From: Eledone cirrhosa
Lineage: Eukaryota
DNA length: 64,000 bases
Reading direction: 5' to 3'
Assembly (NCBI GenBank): GCA_964016885.1
Contig: CAXHJY010000967.1
Coordinates: 124,001 to 188,000, forward strand
Shown: piece after piece, positions 11,780-64,000 of the stretch
Numbering within the stretch: the first letter of the stretch is position 1
Layout: each line of letters begins with the position of its first letter
Program-made: the position numbers and the translations under genes
Notes under the pieces: model-generated
The model's database searches: none
Told to the model about the DNA's origin: nothing
What the model saw: only the letters and a program-made list of their open reading frames with translations

Positions 11780-11821
11780 AGGCATCTGCATATCCAAAAA
11801 ATTTGAGAGGCCAATCCAAAC
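11780..11821 (-). CDS. Candidate 42-nt internal exon of the minus-strand gene
   Basis: ttttcag|GTTTGGATTGGCCTCTCAAATTTTTTGGATATGCAGATGCCT|gtaaga; frame-preserving; in phase 1 reads (R)LDWPLKFFGYADA. Splice signals only, no homology confirmation. Confidence 0.35.
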
Positions 11822-22698: not shown

Positions 22699-24958
22699 TC
22701 ATCATCATCATCAACGTTTAACGTCCGTGTTCCACGCTTGCATGGGTTTGGACGGGGGTAGTCCACTTGAGGCAAGAGTGATTGTCTTGCTCGCATAGGA
22801 CTGTCTGGCAGGTTTTCTACAGTTGGATGCCCTTCCTAACACCAACCACATTTACAGTGTGGGTCTGGGAGGTTTTTACCGTGTTGCCTACACGGCCACA
22901 TTACAGCGTGGACTGTGTGTTTTTTTGTCGTGGCACCTACACGACCTCATTTGTTTTGGCCTGGATGGTGTGGCACCAACATAACTTTACATAGAACGGG
23001 GTGGTGTGGATGGGGTGGTGGTGGTGGTGGGACGGGGGGGGGGTATTTTGTTAGAGATGCCTACTGGCTGTAGTAGGTTTTACTATGTATTTAGGTAAGG
23101 CGGGTCTTCTCTGTTACTGAGTACCGCCAAAGGTCTCGGTCCAGTGACATTGTCTTGGAGAGGTGTAAGTGTGTGAGGTCGGAGTTTATCAGCTCGTCCC
23201 AGGTTTTTCTAGGTCTGCCTATTCCGTGGCTACCGTCTATCTTTATTGCCCTGCACTTTGTTATACAGCTATCGACTTTCATGCGCATCACGTGTCCATA
23301 CCAACGTAGCCTTCTCTCGAGTAAACAACATCTGATCCCTCTTATTTCTAATTTTTTCCTTAGTTCGTTTATGCTTTGCCGTTCACGTATATTACTGTTA
23401 CACATCCAGCGGAGCATGCAAGCTTCGTTCCTCTCTAGTCTGCGTATATCTTCTGCACACAATGCCCAGGTCTCACTGCCATGCAACATTGCTGTTCGTA
23501 TGCAGGCATCGTACAACCTGCCTTTCATTTTTAGGGAGAACCCTTTAGCAGCTAATAGTGGTATAAGCTCTCTGAACTTTTTCCAACCAGTTCTGACTCT
23601 AGCTACTGTACTTTCAGAGCACCCTCCCCCACTGCTGATTTTATCACCCAGGTAACGGAAGCTGTCCACTATTTCTATAGAACCCTCTGCGCAATTGAAA
23701 GAGCTAGTATTTTGTGGGCACTTGCTGCTACTTACTGCACCAGAGCACCGGCCACATGTAAAATCTATGTTCTTAGTTAGCTTACCTGTGATCCCACTAC
23801 ATCTTTTATGCACCCATACTTTGCATTTAGGACATAAAATGGAGTTTCTACCTACGCCTTTCCTACACACCGAGCACGACCATTTCCCAGAAGGGACCGC
23901 TGCCTTATTTTCTTTCCTACAAACTAGAACTTTAGTCTTAGCCAGGTTAATTTTAAGTCCTTTTGATTCTAGGCCGTGCTTCCATGTTTGGAATTTCTTC
24001 TTTAGCTCGGCCATTGATTCCGCTATGAGTGTCAGGTCGTCTGCGTATAGGAGTTCCCATGGGCAGCCGGTCTTGAACTCCTCTGTTATAGCCTGAAGGG
24101 CAATAATAAATAGTAGGGGGCTGAGAACAGAGCCCTGATGGACGCCAACTTTTACGCTAAACTCTTCACTATATTCGTTGTTAATTCTAACCTTGCTGAC
24201 TGTTTCTTTATACATGGCTTGTATAGCTCTCACAAGCCATTCGTCAACGCCTAGTTTTCTAAGAGCCCACCAGATAATGGAGCGGGGGACTCTGTCGAAG
24301 GCTTTCTCCAAGTCGACAAAAGCTAAGTAGAGGGGTTTACCTTTAGCTAGGTACTTCTCCTGTAGTTGTCGTACAATGAAAAGAGCGTCTGTGGTACTTT
24401 TGCCTGACACAAACCCGAACTGCATTTCATCTAGGTGAATTCTCTCTCTGATTAGTTGTGCTATTACTTTTTCCGTGACCTTCATGACCTGGTCGGTTAA
24501 ATTAATGCCTCTATAGTTACTCCTATCTAGGGTGTCTCCTTTACCCTTATAACAGTTAACGATGATGCTGCTATGCCAGTCCTTCGGAACAACCCCATTC
24601 TGTACGACTTGGTTAACTATGCGGGTGACCATGGTGTGTCCCACCGTGCCAGATGCCTTCAGCATCTCAGCAACTATTTCCGAAGGCCCAGCCGCCTTAC
24701 CCGTCTTCATATCCTTGATTGCCTTACTTATTATACTCCCCTCGACTAACACTGCTGGTCCCTCTATTGGGTCGATATGGGGGAGACTGTCTTTCTCCCA
24801 TTTATTCTCCTCATTTAGTAGCCTTTCATAGAGACACTTCCAAGCTACCTTCTTATCAGCGTCGGTGATGGCAAGTATGCCGTCATCGTTAAGTACACAC
24901 TTCTCCCCGACAATATCACGGTTTTCCTTGACGCATTGCCTAGCAATCCTGAAACACC
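22699..24958 (-). mobile_element. RTE-clade LINE, 5'-truncated, young
   Basis: Uninterrupted RT ORF, ~390 bp 3' UTR and (GAT)n tail (TCATCATCATC at 22699 on +); CpG-rich relative to flanks; no clear TSD found. Confidence 0.95.
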
Positions 24959-24968
24959 AATGAGACAA
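23091..24968 (-). CDS. RTE LINE ORF fragment: reverse transcriptase with internal C4HC3 PHD-like finger; endonuclease missing through 5' truncation
   Basis: RT motifs NYRGINL, QFGF, FVDLEKAFDRV, GVHQGSVLSPLLF, LLYADD, GLKINLAKTK, FRYLG; RTE C-terminus RRLRWYGHVMRM...GRPRKTW. The predicted start is not the true initiator. Confidence 0.9.
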   Translation of the reverse strand: MSHWCFRIARQCVKENRDIVGEKCVLNDDGILAITDADKKVAWKCLYERLLNEENKWEKDSLPHIDPIEGPAVLVEGSIISKAIKDMKTGKAAGPSEIVAEMLKASGTVGHTMVTRIVNQVVQNGVVPKDWHSSIIVNCYKGKGDTLDRSNYRGINLTDQVMKVTEKVIAQLIRERIHLDEMQFGFVSGKSTTDALFIVRQLQEKYLAKGKPLYLAFVDLEKAFDRVPRSIIWWALRKLGVDEWLVRAIQAMYKETVSKVRINNEYSEEFSVKVGVHQGSVLSPLLFIIALQAITEEFKTGCPWELLYADDLTLIAESMAELKKKFQTWKHGLESKGLKINLAKTKVLVCRKENKAAVPSGKWSCSVCRKGVGRNSILCPKCKVWVHKRCSGITGKLTKNIDFTCGRCSGAVSSSKCPQNTSSFNCAEGSIEIVDSFRYLGDKISSGGGCSESTVARVRTGWKKFRELIPLLAAKGFSLKMKGRLYDACIRTAMLHGSETWALCAEDIRRLERNEACMLRWMCNSNIRERQSINELRKKLEIRGIRCCLLERRLRWYGHVMRMKVDSCITKCRAIKIDGSHGIGRPRKTWDELINSDLTHLHLSKTMSLDRDLWRYSVTEKTRLT

Positions 24969-25198
24969 ATGTGATAGGAGAAATTCAAATAAATGATAAT
25001 GCTATCAATGATCACAATGTAGAAAAAGAAAATGCGTCACCAGCGTGATCAAGGATAAAATTTAGTGAACAATTTATAGACAGAACACTTTTCATGAAGA
25101 GTTGAGGGGAGGATAAATTAATTAATCAGATTCTTAAAACTTTGTTGCAGCTGGCAATAAACTTAACCTACTTATACCTGGTCCTCACCATATAAATA

Positions 25199-25995: not shown

Positions 25996-28154
25996 GCCAT
26001 GTGTTTCTATGATCTATACCTGTAATGAACACATTAACCAATGCTTTTAAATTACAACTCCTGATTCACTCACAATAGATGTAACATTGACAGTGTTGGA
26101 TTTAGGACAAATGAGGCCCTATGCTAGTTAAGTTGAGGTCCCTTACTTGGGGCCTGAAGGAGGTAAAAAATATTTTTGGCAAGAAGATGGGTCTCCTGAC
26201 CAACAAGGCCCTGTGGTTAAGTACACCTAAGCACAATGGTAATTCCAGCACTGAACATTGGGTAATAGGATTACAGCTGACTGATAGAGATTTGTGCATG
26301 TTTCATACACATGGAAAATGTGCATATATAAATTCATGAGACTACATATCATAGGTGCATTTGTTTTGTAGCAGAATTGAATTCTGCTTGTCATTTCAAT
26401 AGAAGACGTTATTAACATATATTCGTTTACAACGCTGATATTCATATAGACCGAGGAGTGATGAGATCAAGCCTGCCCTACATTTCCAATCATTTGTCAG
26501 TATATGTATGTTAGCACATGATGCATATTTTGAGCCCAGAGTAAGGTTCAATAGATAAGTCATATGAGGTTTTTGGTGTTTTATCTTCAAGTATATACAG
26601 TAAATAGAACACATACTATAAGATTTATTATCTTAAATAAGTGATATTAGTTACTGGATATCTAGACATACTTTTCAGTTTATAAATTTTAGATGAGATA
26701 CTCTATAGTGCCAATTAAATGTATAACATTAAAAAAAACATAATTATAAAGATAATTAACAAATTTGGGTTATGTCACGCATTCATTTTTGGTTTACCTT
26801 TAATGATAATATCGATTTATAAAAAACTTTTTGGGGGGGAGGGGGTTCTTTTATGATCTTAATGCAGAAATGAGAAGCATTGAGCTAATGACTAAAGTAT
26901 TTATTACAACTTACTACCATCTAATAATCCCACTGATATTATAATAATTATGATATCCTTGCCTAAACATAAAGTGTTTTTTACTTTAGTAATGTTGCTT
27001 GAAGTATCCTCAGTGTACTATTTCAATTATTTTAAGTACTGAAAGCAAAGACAACCTCTGTGTATTATTTGAACTCTGAACAGCAAAACAGTAGGTTAGA
27101 TATTGCAAACCAAGTTTAGCTTCCATAGGTTTTGGCTATCTCCAATAATAATTTATATATTAAGCAAAAGGTAGCACATGAATAGGTGATGTTAAATAAC
27201 CCGTTGGATAATTGCGGCACCATCAAAAACTGTGTGTGCAGTGTAGCTAAGGCAAACTGAATGTAAATAATAATAACAATAACAACATCAACATTGTTCT
27301 AATGTGCATAAAATATAACAAATCAGCTTTAATTTTTCATTTGCTTACATCAAGTGCTTTAGCAATTTAAAAAGGAAAATTAGAAACAAGTCACAAAATT
27401 AATTAAACCCTTCCTAAATGAAGTTAATATTTGAGAATTTGAAGAAAAGAAATGAAAACACCAAAAATGCCAATACCAAATCACCACTTGACATACACTG
27501 AATGCTTAATAAATGCTTAATCAACAATATTTTTAGCGAAATAATAAGAACTACAAAAATAGAATTGTTCAACAGCCGCTGAAAAAAGCTATATGATCTA
27601 GAACTTTCTAAGAAATAATCACAGAAAGATGAAGACAAGAAAGAAAAATGATGAAAATCAGAAATTTCCAATAGAAATAAATACACCCTGGCTTGTGCTC
27701 ATGCTGGAATAAATATAATGAAGCCTGTGTATTTGTGTGTTTGCTAAGGCATATTGAACATGGGACATTTGGCTGGTTACTGGACTTGCAACATTGAGAG
27801 CTAAGTTCAAGCCAATCTATTGCTGCTATGTGAGTGGTACAGACCTTGGGCAAGACTATCACAGCTCCCTCGCCGATGGAAGTTAGTAAGACTGCAGTCA
27901 TAATCCCATTTCACTGGTAAAGAAAAAATAGAGACAGCATCTTTCCATCATTCTAAACATACTCAGCACTTTAATGTAACCTCAGAAATTGCATTACATG
28001 AAGCTGTGCAGTATTTCAGCCAATCAGAAAAAAAGAAAATTTCATCTGATAGGCATCATGTGATGTAGTGAAAACAGGGACAAAGCTGTGTTTACATTTA
28101 TAATTATATAGTGAGAAACAATTGCAATACTGAATTCTCAAATGAAGTCGGATT

Positions 28155-32488
<4,334 letters not shown>

Positions 32489-37720: not shown

Positions 37721-39665
37721 TGATAGCTAAGAAGATTAGGTCAAAAATATAAAGTACTGCAATATATGCAACATTTTTTAAAAATTTTCAGTAGATATTT
37801 GACTTTGGAAAAAGATTGTACAACAATATCCTATAGATGTTTGAAGTCGAGCTAAATGTTACTAATGTGTATAAAAGATGAAAATTATATGAAATATAAT
37901 AGACTCTCAGATTGACACGACTAACAATAAATGGACACTTTAAGTACATTAACTCTTTTGATACCAAACCACCTCTCTTTCAATGATACAAAACTGTTTG
38001 TTTTAAAGTATTTATATTTATCTCAAAACCTCCAATCATGATTTTATGCAAGAACCTTTAAGTTATATTCCAAACAACAGAAAGTTAATTGTATTACTAA
38101 ATTCCTCAAAATTGTAGATTATTTTCAAAGGGACTTGAAAATCATAGGCAGTGTCTTTCATTAGAAATATGATGAGATAAGAGTTCAATTGTAGCTGAAA
38201 GTTTGATTTTATGGTTTGTTTGATGAGGTAGATAATCTTGTCTCTTGCAAGATTAAATCAACAATGTGGTGAACCAACAATATTTCTCTCAGAGAAAATG
38301 TTTGTAGTGACTAAAAGAACTTTAGGGACTTTTTGAGTAATAGTAACAGATTCTTTCTGATCATAAAACAATGTTTATAGTATCAGAAGTGTGATGTCAA
38401 ATGGCAGTAAGATATGACTACAAAAGATAGATTATTAATTGCTGTTGAGGAATCGGTTGAATATAATTTTCTGAGTGTAGGAAGAGAAGCTGCATGGTTT
38501 AGTGGTTAGGGTGTTCAGCTTATGGTCATAAGGTCATGAGTTTGAGTCCTTGAGCAAAACACTATCCACATTACTCTAGTTAACTCAGGTGATTGAAAGG
38601 GCCAACCTTCACAGACTGCAGCATGCTGAATGTCAGTCACGTGTACATTAATCTGATGAGCAGGTTGTTCTGTTGATCAACCAGTGGAAGACTCATTGTA
38701 AGAGAGGTCCAACAACACAGAAAGACAGACTGAGTAATAGATAAGTTAGGAAAAAATATATGAGAGTGAAGCAAATTTGATGTTTTGGAACAGTGATACG
38801 TATGGATTAATATGGATTAATACATGCTAAAAAATGGAGGATGAACTAGTCCTACTTTTTTCTGTCTCTAGGGGCTTATATGCCCAACTTATTAAACTGA
38901 TTTTCATAGTTGAAAAACGTGTTGAAGTCATTAACTCTAAGTTGACCTAATATTCAAAAATTTGTAACTCACTCATTGGTTCTAAAAATAGATGGTTTAT
39001 TTACATTTGTGGCTGATTGAAAAGCTTAAAAAAGAGAAAGGTGTGGCCACCTCACTTTGGTGTAATGGAAGCACAGCTACATGGCATACAGCAGGTATGA
39101 GTTTGAGTCATACAGGTGACACTGTTCATTTTTTTCATCTCCCAGGGCTTACACGCCCAATTTATTAGACTGTTTTCCATAGTCTAAAAGTGTGTGTTGA
39201 AGCTGTTAACTCTGAGTTAACTTAATATTCAAATATCTGATTTTCTCCCTAAGGATCAACCCATCCTACCCATGCTAGTATGGAAGATGGATGTTAAATG
39301 ACAATGATGATGATATATATATGTATATATATATATATATGATGTGTGTGTGTATATATATATGTATATATATATTATGTTGGTACCATAAAACATCCAG
39401 CCCACACTGTAAAGTGGTTGTGTAGGTGTCACGTAAAAGCACCCAGCCCACACTGTCAATGTGGTGCGCGTTAGGAAGGGCATCCAGCTGTAGAAAACCA
39501 GCCAGAAAAGTCCTATATGAGCGAGAGATGGTCACCCAACCCAACTTGCCTCTAAATGGGACAAACCTGTCTAACCCATGCTAACGTGGAAGACAGATGT
39601 TAAATGATGATATATATATATATATATATTAATTCAAAATATTAATAAATATAGACATTCACGTA

Positions 39666-39750
39666 ATCAAAATATATTTTATTATATATATTTCGGAGGT
39701 ACTGTGCTTTTTTTCAGTACGTCCTCATCAGATAAAATATATAAATTGAT
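39666..39750 (-). ncRNA. Minimal type I hammerhead ribozyme fold (Penelope-like element type)
   Basis: Minus strand: ATATATTTTAT-CTGATGA-GGACGTACTG(aaaaaaagca)CAGTACCTCC-GAAA-TATATA-TA^ATAAAATATAT; 11-bp helix I, helix II with one mismatch, palindromic helix III, intact core. Confidence 0.8.
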
Positions 39751-39984
39751 GTACTGAAAAAACAGGACAGTACCTCCGACATATATCATCATCATCATCA
39801 TTTCATTTTACGTCCGCTTTTTCCCTGCTTGCAAGGGTGGGGCGGGAACTGATTGTGGCTTGATTTCTACAGCTTGATGCCCTTCCTAACACCAACCTCA
39901 TTTACAGTGAGTGCTGGGTGTTTTTTGCCATGGCACCTGCACGATCACTTTGCAGTAGAATGATATGGACCCCAGTCCCTATCA

Positions 39985-40128
39985 TCTCATTTCTACAGCT
40001 GAGTAAACTGGAGCAATGTGAAATAAAGTGTCTTGCTCAAGGAAACAACACATCACCCGGTCTGAGAATTAAACTCACAACCTTTCGATTGCAAGGCCAA
40101 TGCTCTAACCACTAAGCCATGTGCCTCC
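39985..40128 (-). mobile_element. Second tRNA-derived SINE family
   Basis: Minus strand GGAGGCACATGGCTTAGTGGTTAGAGC (A-box)...CCTTGAGCAAGACACTTTATTTCAC; relatives at ~38490-38710 (+), ~44815-45075 (-), ~17750-18040 (-), ~15250-15345 (+). Confidence 0.75.
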
Positions 40129-40495
40129 ATTGTCTATATTTATTAATATTTTGAATTAATATTAATAACTCAAGAAAACTTTTTTGTTGAGTGCTTCTAA
40201 TCTATTGTAAAACTATATTCATTGATTAATCAATGAACCTTGTTTAACTTTTGGTTATATATATATAATGAGAGGTACACACATATGTGCATACATACAT
40301 ACACATGTATATATACACATATACTTTTTCACAAGTATGTGAGATTGTGTGTTGTCGACCTTAACCAGTGTTGCTCTATGATTATGAGAGACAAGATAAT
40401 CGAAGTAATTAAATTGAATCGATATCAGAGCTATGTAACAATTATAAAGTAAGAAGAAATAGTAGACACAGATATATACCTATTCTTTCTTCAGA

Positions 40496-40734
40496 AATCC
40501 TAGTCATTTAGAACATTTAGGGTACATAATTCTTGTTAGTGTCATAGGTAACATGTGGAGAGTCAGGAGTTAAAAAGATGTTCTGCTTAAAAGAACACAA
40601 TTACAGGCAGCACTGGTTGAAAGTGTGTGCTGCCTGTAATTGTGTTCTTTTAAGCAGAACATCTTTTTAACTCCTGACTCTCCACATGTTACCTATGACA
40701 CTAACAACAATTATGTACCCTAATGACTAGGATT
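40496..40734. repeat. Fold-back palindrome, ~110-bp arms
   Basis: Arms 40496-40613 / 40627-40734, near-perfect apart from one ~10-bp indel and one substitution; 13-nt loop. Confidence 0.95.
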
Positions 40735-47700: not shown

Positions 47701-48308
47701 TAAACGAAAGATTGGGAGCCACTAGGACCACCAACCGTTGTTTGCAGGAATTAAAAGAGATGATGATGATAGTATTAGTAGAAATAGTAGTAGTGGTGGT
47801 GATGGAAATAATAATACAAAAGTAGCATGTTAACAGTTTAAGACATCAATGAATGTATTCATTGAATGGTGATGATGATGATGATGTCTGAAGCTAAACA
47901 ATCATGATGGGCAAAATCTCCAATAAACAAGGATTAGATGAATACAGCAAGTGGTGGAAGTTCTAACAAGTCTTCTCACATTAAAAGACTTCCAGAAGTT
48001 GTGACCAACTTAATACAAAATTTCCCATCGAGTTATGGCTATTATCATTATTAATTCATTAATACTATTATGAGAGGTTAGAGGGGGGGATGCTGATGAT
48101 TGATAGAGAACTAAAGAAATAAACAGCAGGGGAATTAACAGAAAATAATTACTGCTGCTGCTAATAGAGAATTATAGAGAAGGTGGCGATGGTGGGGATG
48201 GATTTTTTTTTTCTCCCCAAAACCTCATTCGTACCGTGCCGTACAGTTTATACTCATGAGAATCACATTGGGTTTTTAAATAAACAAAAATCAAACAAAA
48301 AAACTTAC

Positions 48309-48441
48309 GCCGACTGGGTCTCCGAGGACCGGAAGATGAGCCGGGGTCAAAATTCCTTGCTCGATCCCTTTCTCTGGAACTATTTTCCTCTATCAATCTC
48401 CGTTCCAGTTGGTTCAGCTTGTTTTGTATTGAAGTGGACAT
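48309..48441 (-). CDS. MAP2K7: First coding exon of a probable MAP kinase kinase 7 (MKK7/hemipterous) gene; rest of gene lies towards lower coordinates
   Basis: ATG in CAAC-ATG context; encodes MSTSIQNKLNQLERRLIEENSSRERDRARNFDPGSSSGPRRPSR, resembling the MKK7 N-terminal coiled coil (human MAASSLEQKLSRLEAKLKQENREARRR...PQRPRP, recalled); ends at a strong C|GTAAGT phase-1 donor (GT at 48308-48307); lies in a locally CpG-rich zone. No kinase-domain exons seen in the window. Confidence 0.7.
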
Positions 48442-58490: not shown

Positions 58491-59215
58491 TAAACAAGTG
58501 CTGCCTGGATAGGTACTGCTGCCTCATACCTGTTAGGTGGTAAGATATTATATAGCTTGTTTAGATTACCAGTACCTTTAATTAATATAAGTATTTCTAA
58601 TATATCTATATCTACATCTAAGCAAGCCTGTTTCTTAACAGATCAAGTTAATTTCATTCACGTTGACAAAGCATCCATGACACTTTCTTTCACCTTTGGT
58701 ACCATTGATAAATATCATCAGGATCTTACTGATATCAATAGCATTTTTGGAGTGAAAAATCATCTTATTGTTAGGAATTGTAGACAAGTGCTACCTATTC
58801 TTCCAAAAGCAACACAGACTGCTACTATTGATATCATCTAAAACAATCTCACTTCTGGCAGTATTTGAGACAATATCACCTAACTTGAAATTTGAGGGCC
58901 ATAGAAGAACAAAAGGACTATGCAGATTGGTTGCTTCTGCTTGGAAATGGAACCGCTCCAACTTCTTTGGTTAATATTAGAGTAAGTATGACACATCCTA
59001 TACCAGGATTAACATCAGATGATGTCCAAGTACTATCATTTTCATATATTTCTTTAAATGAGGAGATTTTAAAACTACTGCCAGGAAATGTTCAAACATA
59101 TTTTAGTACAGATCAAATTGTTTGTGAGAATTATTTAATTAATCTACTCCATTAGGAATGCCTCAATATAAATTGGATTTAAAAATCAGATCTGTTGTAA
59201 TATTATTACGTAATA

Positions 59216-62169: not shown

Positions 62170-64000
62170 TAATAATGAATAATAATGAAATTATTGTGTA
62201 CAGTACTCAGGTGCATTACAACTCATTAAAGGTGCATGTATAGTACATAGAATAATATACAAATGTCAGGGAAGTGAATAGTGTATGAGTCATGATATAC
62301 ATGTGTGTGTGTGTATGGAGGGGGAATATTAGGTGTAGTGTTGGCGAATCTCAGGAAGCATAGAGGTTTTAATGGATGCAGTGTCTCGACAGCTAACAAC
62401 TGATGCAGGTAGTTTGTTCCATGCTTCAGTAACTCTGAGCATGAAAAAATGTTTCTGAAAGTATATGGGAGCTATGCTATTTTCTCACTTTGTCGGCATG
62501 CCCACGTGTGTTAGACACGTGGAAATCAAAAAGGTACTCAGGGTTGTTGTTGGCAAGATGGTTAATAATTTTGTGGGTGTTTACCAAGTCAGTTGCCAGA
62601 TGTCAGAGCTTCAATGAATCCATGCCCAAGGAAGCAAGGCGTTCAGAGTATGGTAGATGCTTGATGGAGGGTATTCGCTTGGTTGCACATCTCTGAACAG
62701 TTTCCAGGCGGTCAATGTTCTGAGCAAGATAGGGGTTCCAGACTGGTGATGCAAATTCTAAGTGTGGCCACACCATAGCTATATACAGCTTTAAATAGAT
62801 AGCTGGAGAGCGGCTGACAAAGGTCTTGCTGAGTGATGCTAAGACACCCTCGGCCTTCTTGACAATTTTAGAAACGTGCTTCATCCAACGCAAATCGCTG
62901 CTGACTGTAATGCTCAGGTCACGCTCACAAGAAGACTTCTTGATATTAGTGTTGTGGAGAGAGTATGTGAATGCTGGGTTTTTACTCCCAAAATGCCTGG
63001 TGGTGCACTTGTCCACAGCTAGATTGAGTTGCCAGTCTGTGATCCATTATTGCATTGTATCCAGGTTAGATTGCAGGCAAGATCTATAGTGTTCAGGATC
63101 TGTCCTTTTTATCTCAAGGTACAGCTTGATGTCATCTGCATATTTCAGTACTGTGGCATTCTTTAAGTTGGCATCTATGTCATTAATATATGCCACAAAC
63201 AAAAGGGGGCCAAGAGCAGATCCCTGTGGTACACCAGATGACATCTCATATGGTGAGGAATGCTGTCCTAGAACCGTGACTTCCTCTCTTCGACTGAGAA
63301 TGAAGGACTTCAACCGGTTAAAAAGATCATCCTTCACACCCATTGCAGAGAGTTTTGCCATAAGTCTTTTGTGTGGTACAGAATTGAAAGCTTTAGCAAA
63401 GTCAAGGTAAACAACATCCACCTATGCGCTGCCATCAGTGATCTGGGTGATGTCTTCAAGAAACTCGATAAGTTGATCACAGCAGCTGGAGTTAGGGATA
63501 AATCCAAATTGCGAGAGCCGGATAAGATTGTGAGAGTTCCAGAAGTTCCAAAGCATTTCTCTGACACAGGATTCCATCAGTTTGGCGATGCAGCCAGTAA
63601 GACTGACTGGACGATAGTTCACAGGTGATGTGCAGTCACCCTTTTTGAACAGAGGAATGACACTGGCAGTTTTCCACTGTTCTGGAGTAGCACCGTTGTT
63701 CAGACAGAATTGGAAGAAGCGTGATAGCTAGTGCAGAAGGAAGTACCCACCACGTTTAAGAAGCAGGTACGTAACACCATCAAGACTAGGAGAGGCATCG
63801 TTGCATTTATTTTTAAGGTGACATCGTAGCATTGCAGGTGTAAATTCCATAGTTGTAATAGAATCCGATGTCCCAGGTGCTGGAGATGGTACACTCTGGT
63901 CTTCAATAGTGAAAATGCCTGCATAGCATTCAGCAATGAGTTCTGCGCATTCCTTGGGGTCATCAGTAATCTGGCTTGTGCGGGGATTGTGAAGAGGACC
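62170..64000 (-). mobile_element. CR1-clade LINE, degenerate, runs off window end
   Basis: NYRPVSLT, QFGF, DVVYLDFAKAFNSVPH, SGVPQGSALGPLLF, KYADDIKLY, PHLEFASPVWNPY, YSERL; (ATT)n-type 3' tail; several stops and frameshifts. Confidence 0.95.

Follow-up and report, generated by a model that had tools for sequence, protein, structure and literature searches.

We consider it very probable (about 85%) that the hammerhead-bearing sequence at 39626-40263 of the window, the whole 64,000-nucleotide stretch of Eledone cirrhosa DNA analysed here, is what remains of a Hydra-clade Penelope-like element (PLE): a truncated insertion with two arms, now dead, likely copied by reverse transcriptase (RT) from both ends of an endonuclease-cut (TA)n run, with its ribozyme predicted to be silent in an intron of MAP2K7.

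The hammerhead motif and the insertion that carries it

Motif inspection and folding revealed a complete type I minimal hammerhead on the minus strand at 39742-39672. Helix I (39742-39732 / 39682-39672) has 11 bp and leads into the CUGAUGA core (39731-39725). Helix II (39724-39715 / 39704-39695) has 10 positions with one C-C mismatch, and the GAAA (39694-39691) runs into the palindromic AUAUAUAU of helix III (39691-39684), followed by A17 at 39683. The core bases C3-A9, G12-A14, A15.1-U16.1 and H17 are present together with helices I and II, and 11/11 core bases are intact. All these parts had been listed in the initial annotation, down to the single mismatch, and the cut it predicted between 39683 and 39682 matches the position of A17. 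The hammerhead scan that it had proposed gave a divided result. A motif scan of the fetched, partly overlapping sequence (1.02 Mb) returned 241 matches and none in the same sequence reversed, whereas no Rfam hammerhead model matched the window motif at the gathering threshold or at E<=10. The Rfam models may not cover minimal hammerhead forms.

The motif resembles the minimal hammerheads of metazoan PLEs described in Cervera and de la Pena (2014, PMC4209133) in its type I topology, long helix II, G10.1-C11.1 pair and palindromic 15.2-16.2 region, and in its occurrence as scattered single copies and as opposite-strand pairs 100-700 bp apart. It differs from the hammerheads in the available text of that paper in the length of helix I (11 bp vs. 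4-5) and in the absence of an extra base between A9 and G10.1. Across many families, 128 of 146 distinct motifs, many of them close kin, have a self-complementary helix III (92 with Watson-Crick pairs, 36 with G-U). The strings of helix III include AUAUAUAU, AUAUGUAU, AUGCGCAU, AUGCAU and ACUAGU, with changes such as AUAUAUAU to AUGCGCAU. The earlier view that this minimal hammerhead is of Penelope type, its palindromic helix III being of the dimer kind, is supported, as is an origin by retrotransposition.

As an element-level trait, the ribozyme is under selection: helix III keeps its self-complementarity, and in 65 arms from searches that were not conditioned on the core the rate of all substitutions is halved in the core (0.021 vs. 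0.042 at other positions, p=0.005). The inserted copies themselves give no clear sign of selection: in the same arms, the rate of rare substitutions is 0.011 in the core vs. 0.018 elsewhere (p=0.23), so that core loss is not significantly below that at other positions. The whole core is kept in 48 of the 65 arms, and a core base is damaged or absent in 17. The copies of the subfamily are very alike, and as covariation only the G-C to G-U change in 18/65 arms stands out.

The window copy is a truncated head-to-head pair in (TA)n, whose minus-strand arm covers positions 110-238 of the parent element and whose plus-strand arm covers 142-340. On the left flank, the (TA)n target run (39610..39629) adjoins the 3' tail of an older SINE. 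The short arm (39626..39752, minus strand; parent pseudo-LTR 110-238) contains the whole hammerhead and ends at the first of two fixed 3' ends; it is 94% identical to a natural full-length copy and has one base deleted in comparison with another locus (L005). The long arm lies on the plus strand in two pieces. The 5' piece (39751..39786, parent 142-178) retains helix II and a changed GAAA without the CUGAUGA, and the 3' piece (40131..40263, parent 207-340) carries a tail of ~100 nt and reaches the second fixed 3' end in (TA)n. Between them, where helix III of the long arm has its TA run, lies a tRNA-headed SINE of 343 nt with a (GAT)n tail (39788..40130, minus strand), and ~28 nt of the arm (parent 179-206) are missing at this site. 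The SINE is near full length in 15 of 43 BLAST matches among the loci, a count that includes itself and some duplicated places. Its head has a weak Rfam tRNA match (40062-40119, E=0.014), and ARAGORN found no tRNA gene there. Of the architecture proposed earlier, the inverted partial copy (39751-39786), the reverse-complementary outer arms (39621-39657 / 40131-40167, 95% complementary) and the (TA)n on either side were recovered, whereas the "two SINE-type insertions" between the arms proved to be this one SINE. Comparison of four contig sets with 39050-40265 gave repeat-derived cover only, with no piece across the whole locus.

Other inverted sequences lie close by. Related SINE copies at 39435-39507 and 39853-39925 stand in opposite orientation and are 84% complementary. 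A near-perfect 97-bp fold-back (40517-40613 / 40627-40723) occupies most of 40495-40723; this interval represents a young member of a different repeat family, its fixed end being at 40495 (1,411 candidates, 95-98% identity). It is possibly another two-armed PLE stub and possibly forms a strong double-stranded RNA in MAP2K7 intron 1. Together, the opposed SINE copies and the fold-backs may offer several candidate substrates for A-to-I editing in that intron. The TA palindrome of helix III (parent 176-188) is itself a recurrent break site (L001, which is the window locus, L014, L079, L101, L215, L216 and L217), with a later insertion responsible in several cases, and elements that seek TA sites may use this ribozyme helix as a target.

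The parent element

The stretch around the hammerhead is repetitive, with 1,254 first-look candidates in the 3.0-Gb genome and 93-99% identity in the best copies. Exact subfamily patterns occur at 137 and 307 places. The 5' half of the motif has 7,166 exact matches, a figure that is not the copy number of the subfamily: the core pattern is common to sister subfamilies, and most of the 30 loci returned have a different helix II loop. Upstream within the longer copies lie a 3' UTR and then a broken RT-endonuclease ORF, and the same hammerhead flanks remains of this ORF in many loci. One locus, L092, is a natural full-length copy in the order pseudo-LTR, tail, ORF, 3' UTR and pseudo-LTR, with an inverted arm in front and the hammerhead recurring past the 3' UTR. 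The pseudo-LTR is continuous with the ORF in L092, L111, L117, L118, L120, L123, L126 and L127. In the parent, a TATA box (33-40) and an Inr-like TCACT (63-67) precede the hammerhead (core from 131, cut after 181), the two 3' ends (end 1 at 238, end 2 at 340) and the ATG at 390, after which follow RT and GIY-YIG, the 3' UTR and the pseudo-LTR again.

The single ORF joined to the pseudo-LTR encodes RT and GIY-YIG, as identified from motifs and the relatives P0001/P0002, and its pieces are colinear with residues 8-696 of an intact 707-aa relative. Profile searches with the parent ORF gave a weak Pfam match to RVT_1 (E=0.002) and none to GIY-YIG, and a PDB search returned a retron RT alone (E=4e-4) with nothing for the endonuclease part. 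All long copies examined have a broken ORF. The marks of the Hydra clade given in section 11 of Craig et al. (2021, PMC8557442) are a CxCX5C linker, the lack of CCHH, CxxC/CxH near the end, a DKT motif and TA targets. The translations of L092, L093 and L101 show the CxCX5C linker, no CCHH, and CxxC and CxH around E and N. L092 also has RLRW and SDKT at the Hydra RWK and DKT motifs, the residue past RW being variable. These motifs and a by-eye comparison with published sequences assign the parent, a Penelope-like retrotransposon that encodes RT and a GIY-YIG endonuclease, to the Hydra clade, and the window sequence is its pseudo-LTR. The distinct non-autonomous element of the initial annotation is not supported, as Hydra-clade copies with an ORF have this very sequence as their pseudo-LTR.

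Judged by its hammerhead, which differs, the family is distinct from the published octopus Hydra-1_Obim. In File S2 of PMC8557442, Hydra-1_Obim and five other Hydra hammerheads have a 4-bp stem-loop helix III, in contrast to the loopless palindrome here, and the 17-nt core string of the window motif was not found in the available part of that supplement. The tail is also longer, ~100 nt compared with the 30-40 bp stated for the Hydra clade in the same paper. A literature search that covered neither Repbase and Dfam nor most subscription papers did not find the family described. Its general features have precedents: a one-sided tail, an inverted copy and a TATA/TCACT promoter are all described in the available parts of PMC8557442 and PMC3846280. 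The Penelope elements of Adineta vaga (PMC3846280) share a pseudo-LTR in which an Inr-like TCACT comes after the TATA box, as well as a head-to-head inverted pseudo-LTR, an optional tail and an asparagine-rich stretch in the ORF. Unlike the window family, they are low in copy number, and the authors favour self-priming. Non-LTR retrozymes (PMC7229834; bioRxiv 10.64898/2026.07.22.740005) likewise have a type I hammerhead derived from a PLE pseudo-LTR. They consist, however, of head-to-tail tandem units of a non-coding monomer, whereas the window insertion is a stub left by a coding element, with its arms head to head.

Several related elements were seen in the same loci. A second Penelope-type element is nested in the parent 3' UTR at L032:756-2316, and a different Hydra-like family lies beside another parent copy at L101:2712-3514. 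Many further hammerhead families with other helices, some with a stem-loop helix III, lie within 1 Mb of fetched loci (L008, L010, L011, L012, L017, L021, L064, L083, L088, L091 and others).

Insertion ends and the origin of the two arms

With L092 as a ruler, 205 distinct arms of at least 29 nt and at least 84% identity were mapped in loci L001-L221, after internal palindrome matches and arms at locus edges had been dropped. The loci are best matches or the first by position rather than a random sample, and many came from core-holding queries. The 3' ends concentrate at two sites ~100 nt apart, 232-246 in 91/205 arms and 322-346 in 75/205, and TA repeats adjoin 146 of these 166 fixed ends, in agreement with the (TA)n targets of the Hydra clade. 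Among 47 head-to-head pairs, 33 combine a long and a short arm, one has two short arms and none has two long arms; the other 13 are unclassifiable, several having an arm broken by a later insertion. One end of each kind is thus used in 33 of the 34 classifiable pairs (p=4e-8 against 0.55). The two arms overlap by at least 20 nt in 26 of the 33 long and short pairs, so that two templates or strand displacement would be needed. The 5' ends also pile up: 50 of the 129 arms that start between 13 and 230 do so at 61-74 (mode 65), at the Inr-like TCACT 30-32 nt past the TATA box, a start site placed from DNA ends alone. Arms crossing the cut site number 140/161, a share inflated by the core-holding queries, and 11/161 start at 172-186. 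An ORF-bearing copy at L101:4772-5138 (C4, 62.49 Mb) has its 5' end inside a 3-nt microhomology where the ribozyme is predicted to cut, and some templates may be cleaved before copying. As in EN+ Penelope-like elements, there are also partial copies, tandem or inverted and truncated at the 5' end, with a tail on one side only.

In the mechanism that we propose, the endonuclease of the element would cut a (TA)n run, and RT would prime internally, from position 238 at one of the DNA ends and from 340 at the other. Synthesis would proceed toward the RNA 5' end, often as far as the start site at about 65, with microhomology joining the two cDNAs. In the window, the SINE would have been inserted later into the TA-rich helix III of the long arm. 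The ribozyme of the parent would act as a dimer between tandem pseudo-LTRs, or with the help of protein. The two 3' ends, the pairing of one of each and the 5' pile-up fit internal priming on mostly uncut RNA.

A comparable scheme is described for Poseidon of Anolis (Frangieh et al. 2024, PMC11167929). In that element each of the two DNA strands is cut and then extended, the tail lies between two internal start sites of RT, uncut RNA serves as the principal template, and the hammerhead requires protein in order to cleave. The ends of the window family fit this scheme, and the AT-rich targets are alike. Poseidon belongs to a different clade, and its RT start sites lie in the ORF ~30-40 nt apart, whereas those proposed here precede the ATG and are spaced by ~100 nt. 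The near-strict pairing of one of each end and the 5' pile-up at the Inr are features of the window family and are not among the Poseidon results in the available text of that paper. A more specific reading, which we hold tentatively and at somewhat less than even odds, is that the stubs record a PLE integration intermediate, in which a dimeric RT-endonuclease, priming at either end of a cut (TA)n site, works on two uncut RNAs, one subunit always starting from 238 and the other from 340, and each copies back to the transcription start. If so, the long-noted one-sided tail would become a near-obligate rule and the promoter would be mapped from DNA alone. The hammerhead would then be bypassed in most insertions and used for a few unit-length ones such as that in L101.

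Other origins of the short copies were weighed. It is improbable that they form a non-autonomous family of SINE or retrozyme type that relies on the pseudo-LTR promoter of stubs for transcription and on Hydra protein, in trans, for mobilization. Such a family would account for their youth (93-99% identity over the matched part vs. 83-95% for ORF matches) and for the sharp 5' end near 65 in many of them, and a long-armed stub does retain the Inr and both end sites. However, the TATA box is missing from arms that start at 61-74, copies vary in their 5' ends and junctions, no long tandem arrays of the unit were seen in the loci examined, and the sequence is continuous with the ORF in the eight loci listed above. 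Quite improbable is an inverted structure generated by fold-back self-priming, by DNA-level duplication or as a miniature element (MITE) with terminal inverted repeats. The head-to-head arms and the sequence common to both arms in most long and short pairs agree with it, and self-priming has been proposed for Penelope inversions (PMC3846280), but the ends differ between the arms in 33/34 pairs, single arms are common, and the arms are pieces of the pseudo-LTR of an RT element. A MITE in particular was ruled out, as the copies have neither fixed terminal inverted repeats nor a uniform length. A non-LTR retrozyme does not fit the window, which has one motif in a head-to-head pair instead of head-to-tail units.

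The ribozyme in the MAP2K7 intron

The host gene was identified through its first coding exon and neighbouring stretches of the contig. Between 48441 and 48309, the reading frame matches the beginning of a cuttlefish MAP2K7 with 93% identity, which places the first coding exon at 48309..48441 on the minus strand, with a GTAAGT donor at 48308. A small second exon is probable at 11781..11819 on the same strand (a weak match, E=0.02), and no kinase motifs were found within the window itself. The remaining exons lie on the same strand at 101.2-81.3 kb of the contig, outside the window, and those tested match MKK7 best. The MAP2K7 exons and the hammerhead share a strand, so the hammerhead is sense in intron 1, ~8 kb past the first coding exon. 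The exon 1 match and the downstream exons thus bear out the sense orientation claimed earlier.

Three further features of this region were recorded. Successive 10-kb stretches at ~4-34 kb of the contig (L046-L048) are ~99% identical, which from their sequence would be a tandem duplication or an assembly artefact. An open RT frame of 636 aa at 23094-25001 (minus strand) is presumably RTE-like, and the RT fragments at 62606-64000 (minus strand) presumably come from another LINE. The stretch 28001-32000 is extremely AT-rich and C-skewed (GC 8-12%).

Secondary-structure models at equilibrium put the cost of the active fold at 1.7 kcal/mol for the motif alone vs. ~19-23 kcal/mol in context. The antisense arm, which on the minus-strand RNA is the 5' piece of the long arm (39751-39786) and is transcribed first, pairs in these models with helix II, the GAAA and helix III, and the ribozyme of the window copy would be trapped in this fold-back hairpin. 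Forcing helix III in a monomer costs 2.8 kcal/mol, and the AUAUAUAU duplex contributes only -3.2. Across the family, the modelled block has a median of 78 kcal/mol in 31 arms with an antisense partner vs. 5.9 in 61 arms without one. No second compatible motif was found in the window and the contig stretches spanning MAP2K7; a loose match at 58721 was rejected as a partner, lying upstream of exon 1 and having no compatible helix III. Similar minimal ribozymes did not cleave as monomers in the experiments available from PMC4209133, and a Penelope hammerhead did not cleave without the protein of its element in those from PMC11167929. The initial annotation had suggested that the hammerhead could cleave the pre-mRNA. 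Because of the block by the antisense arm, the unstable monomer helix III and the lack of a partner motif in the gene, cleavage of MAP2K7 RNA by the window copy is predicted to be unlikely, and the models make an inert copy most likely.

It is very improbable that the window copy is an active or co-opted ribozyme that cuts the MAP2K7 pre-mRNA, for example after its hairpin has been opened by an RNA-binding protein or by A-to-I editing. The intact core in a sense motif of intron 1 would suit this role, but an intact core is expected in a young copy (48/65 unselected arms keep theirs), and thousands of related motifs genome-wide make a sense intronic copy unremarkable. The window arm has the weakest block of the 31 antisense-partnered arms (18.9 kcal/mol), and a Penelope hammerhead can be activated by its own protein (PMC11167929); still, the antisense arm is made first and a dimer partner in cis is absent. 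A search of the literature, most subscription papers excluded, found no report of PLE stubs cutting host pre-mRNA. Were the window copy, against the odds, to cut MAP2K7 RNA, a stress-kinase gene would have a switch derived from a transposon.

As one among hundreds of copies in the subfamily and thousands of related motifs, the single copy in the window carries little weight. The family as a whole is a natural data set on Penelope-like integration and on the role of the hammerhead in it. With its two fixed ends, the pairing of one of each and the pile-up at the start site, it supplies precise coordinates with which a second clade could be tested in vitro.
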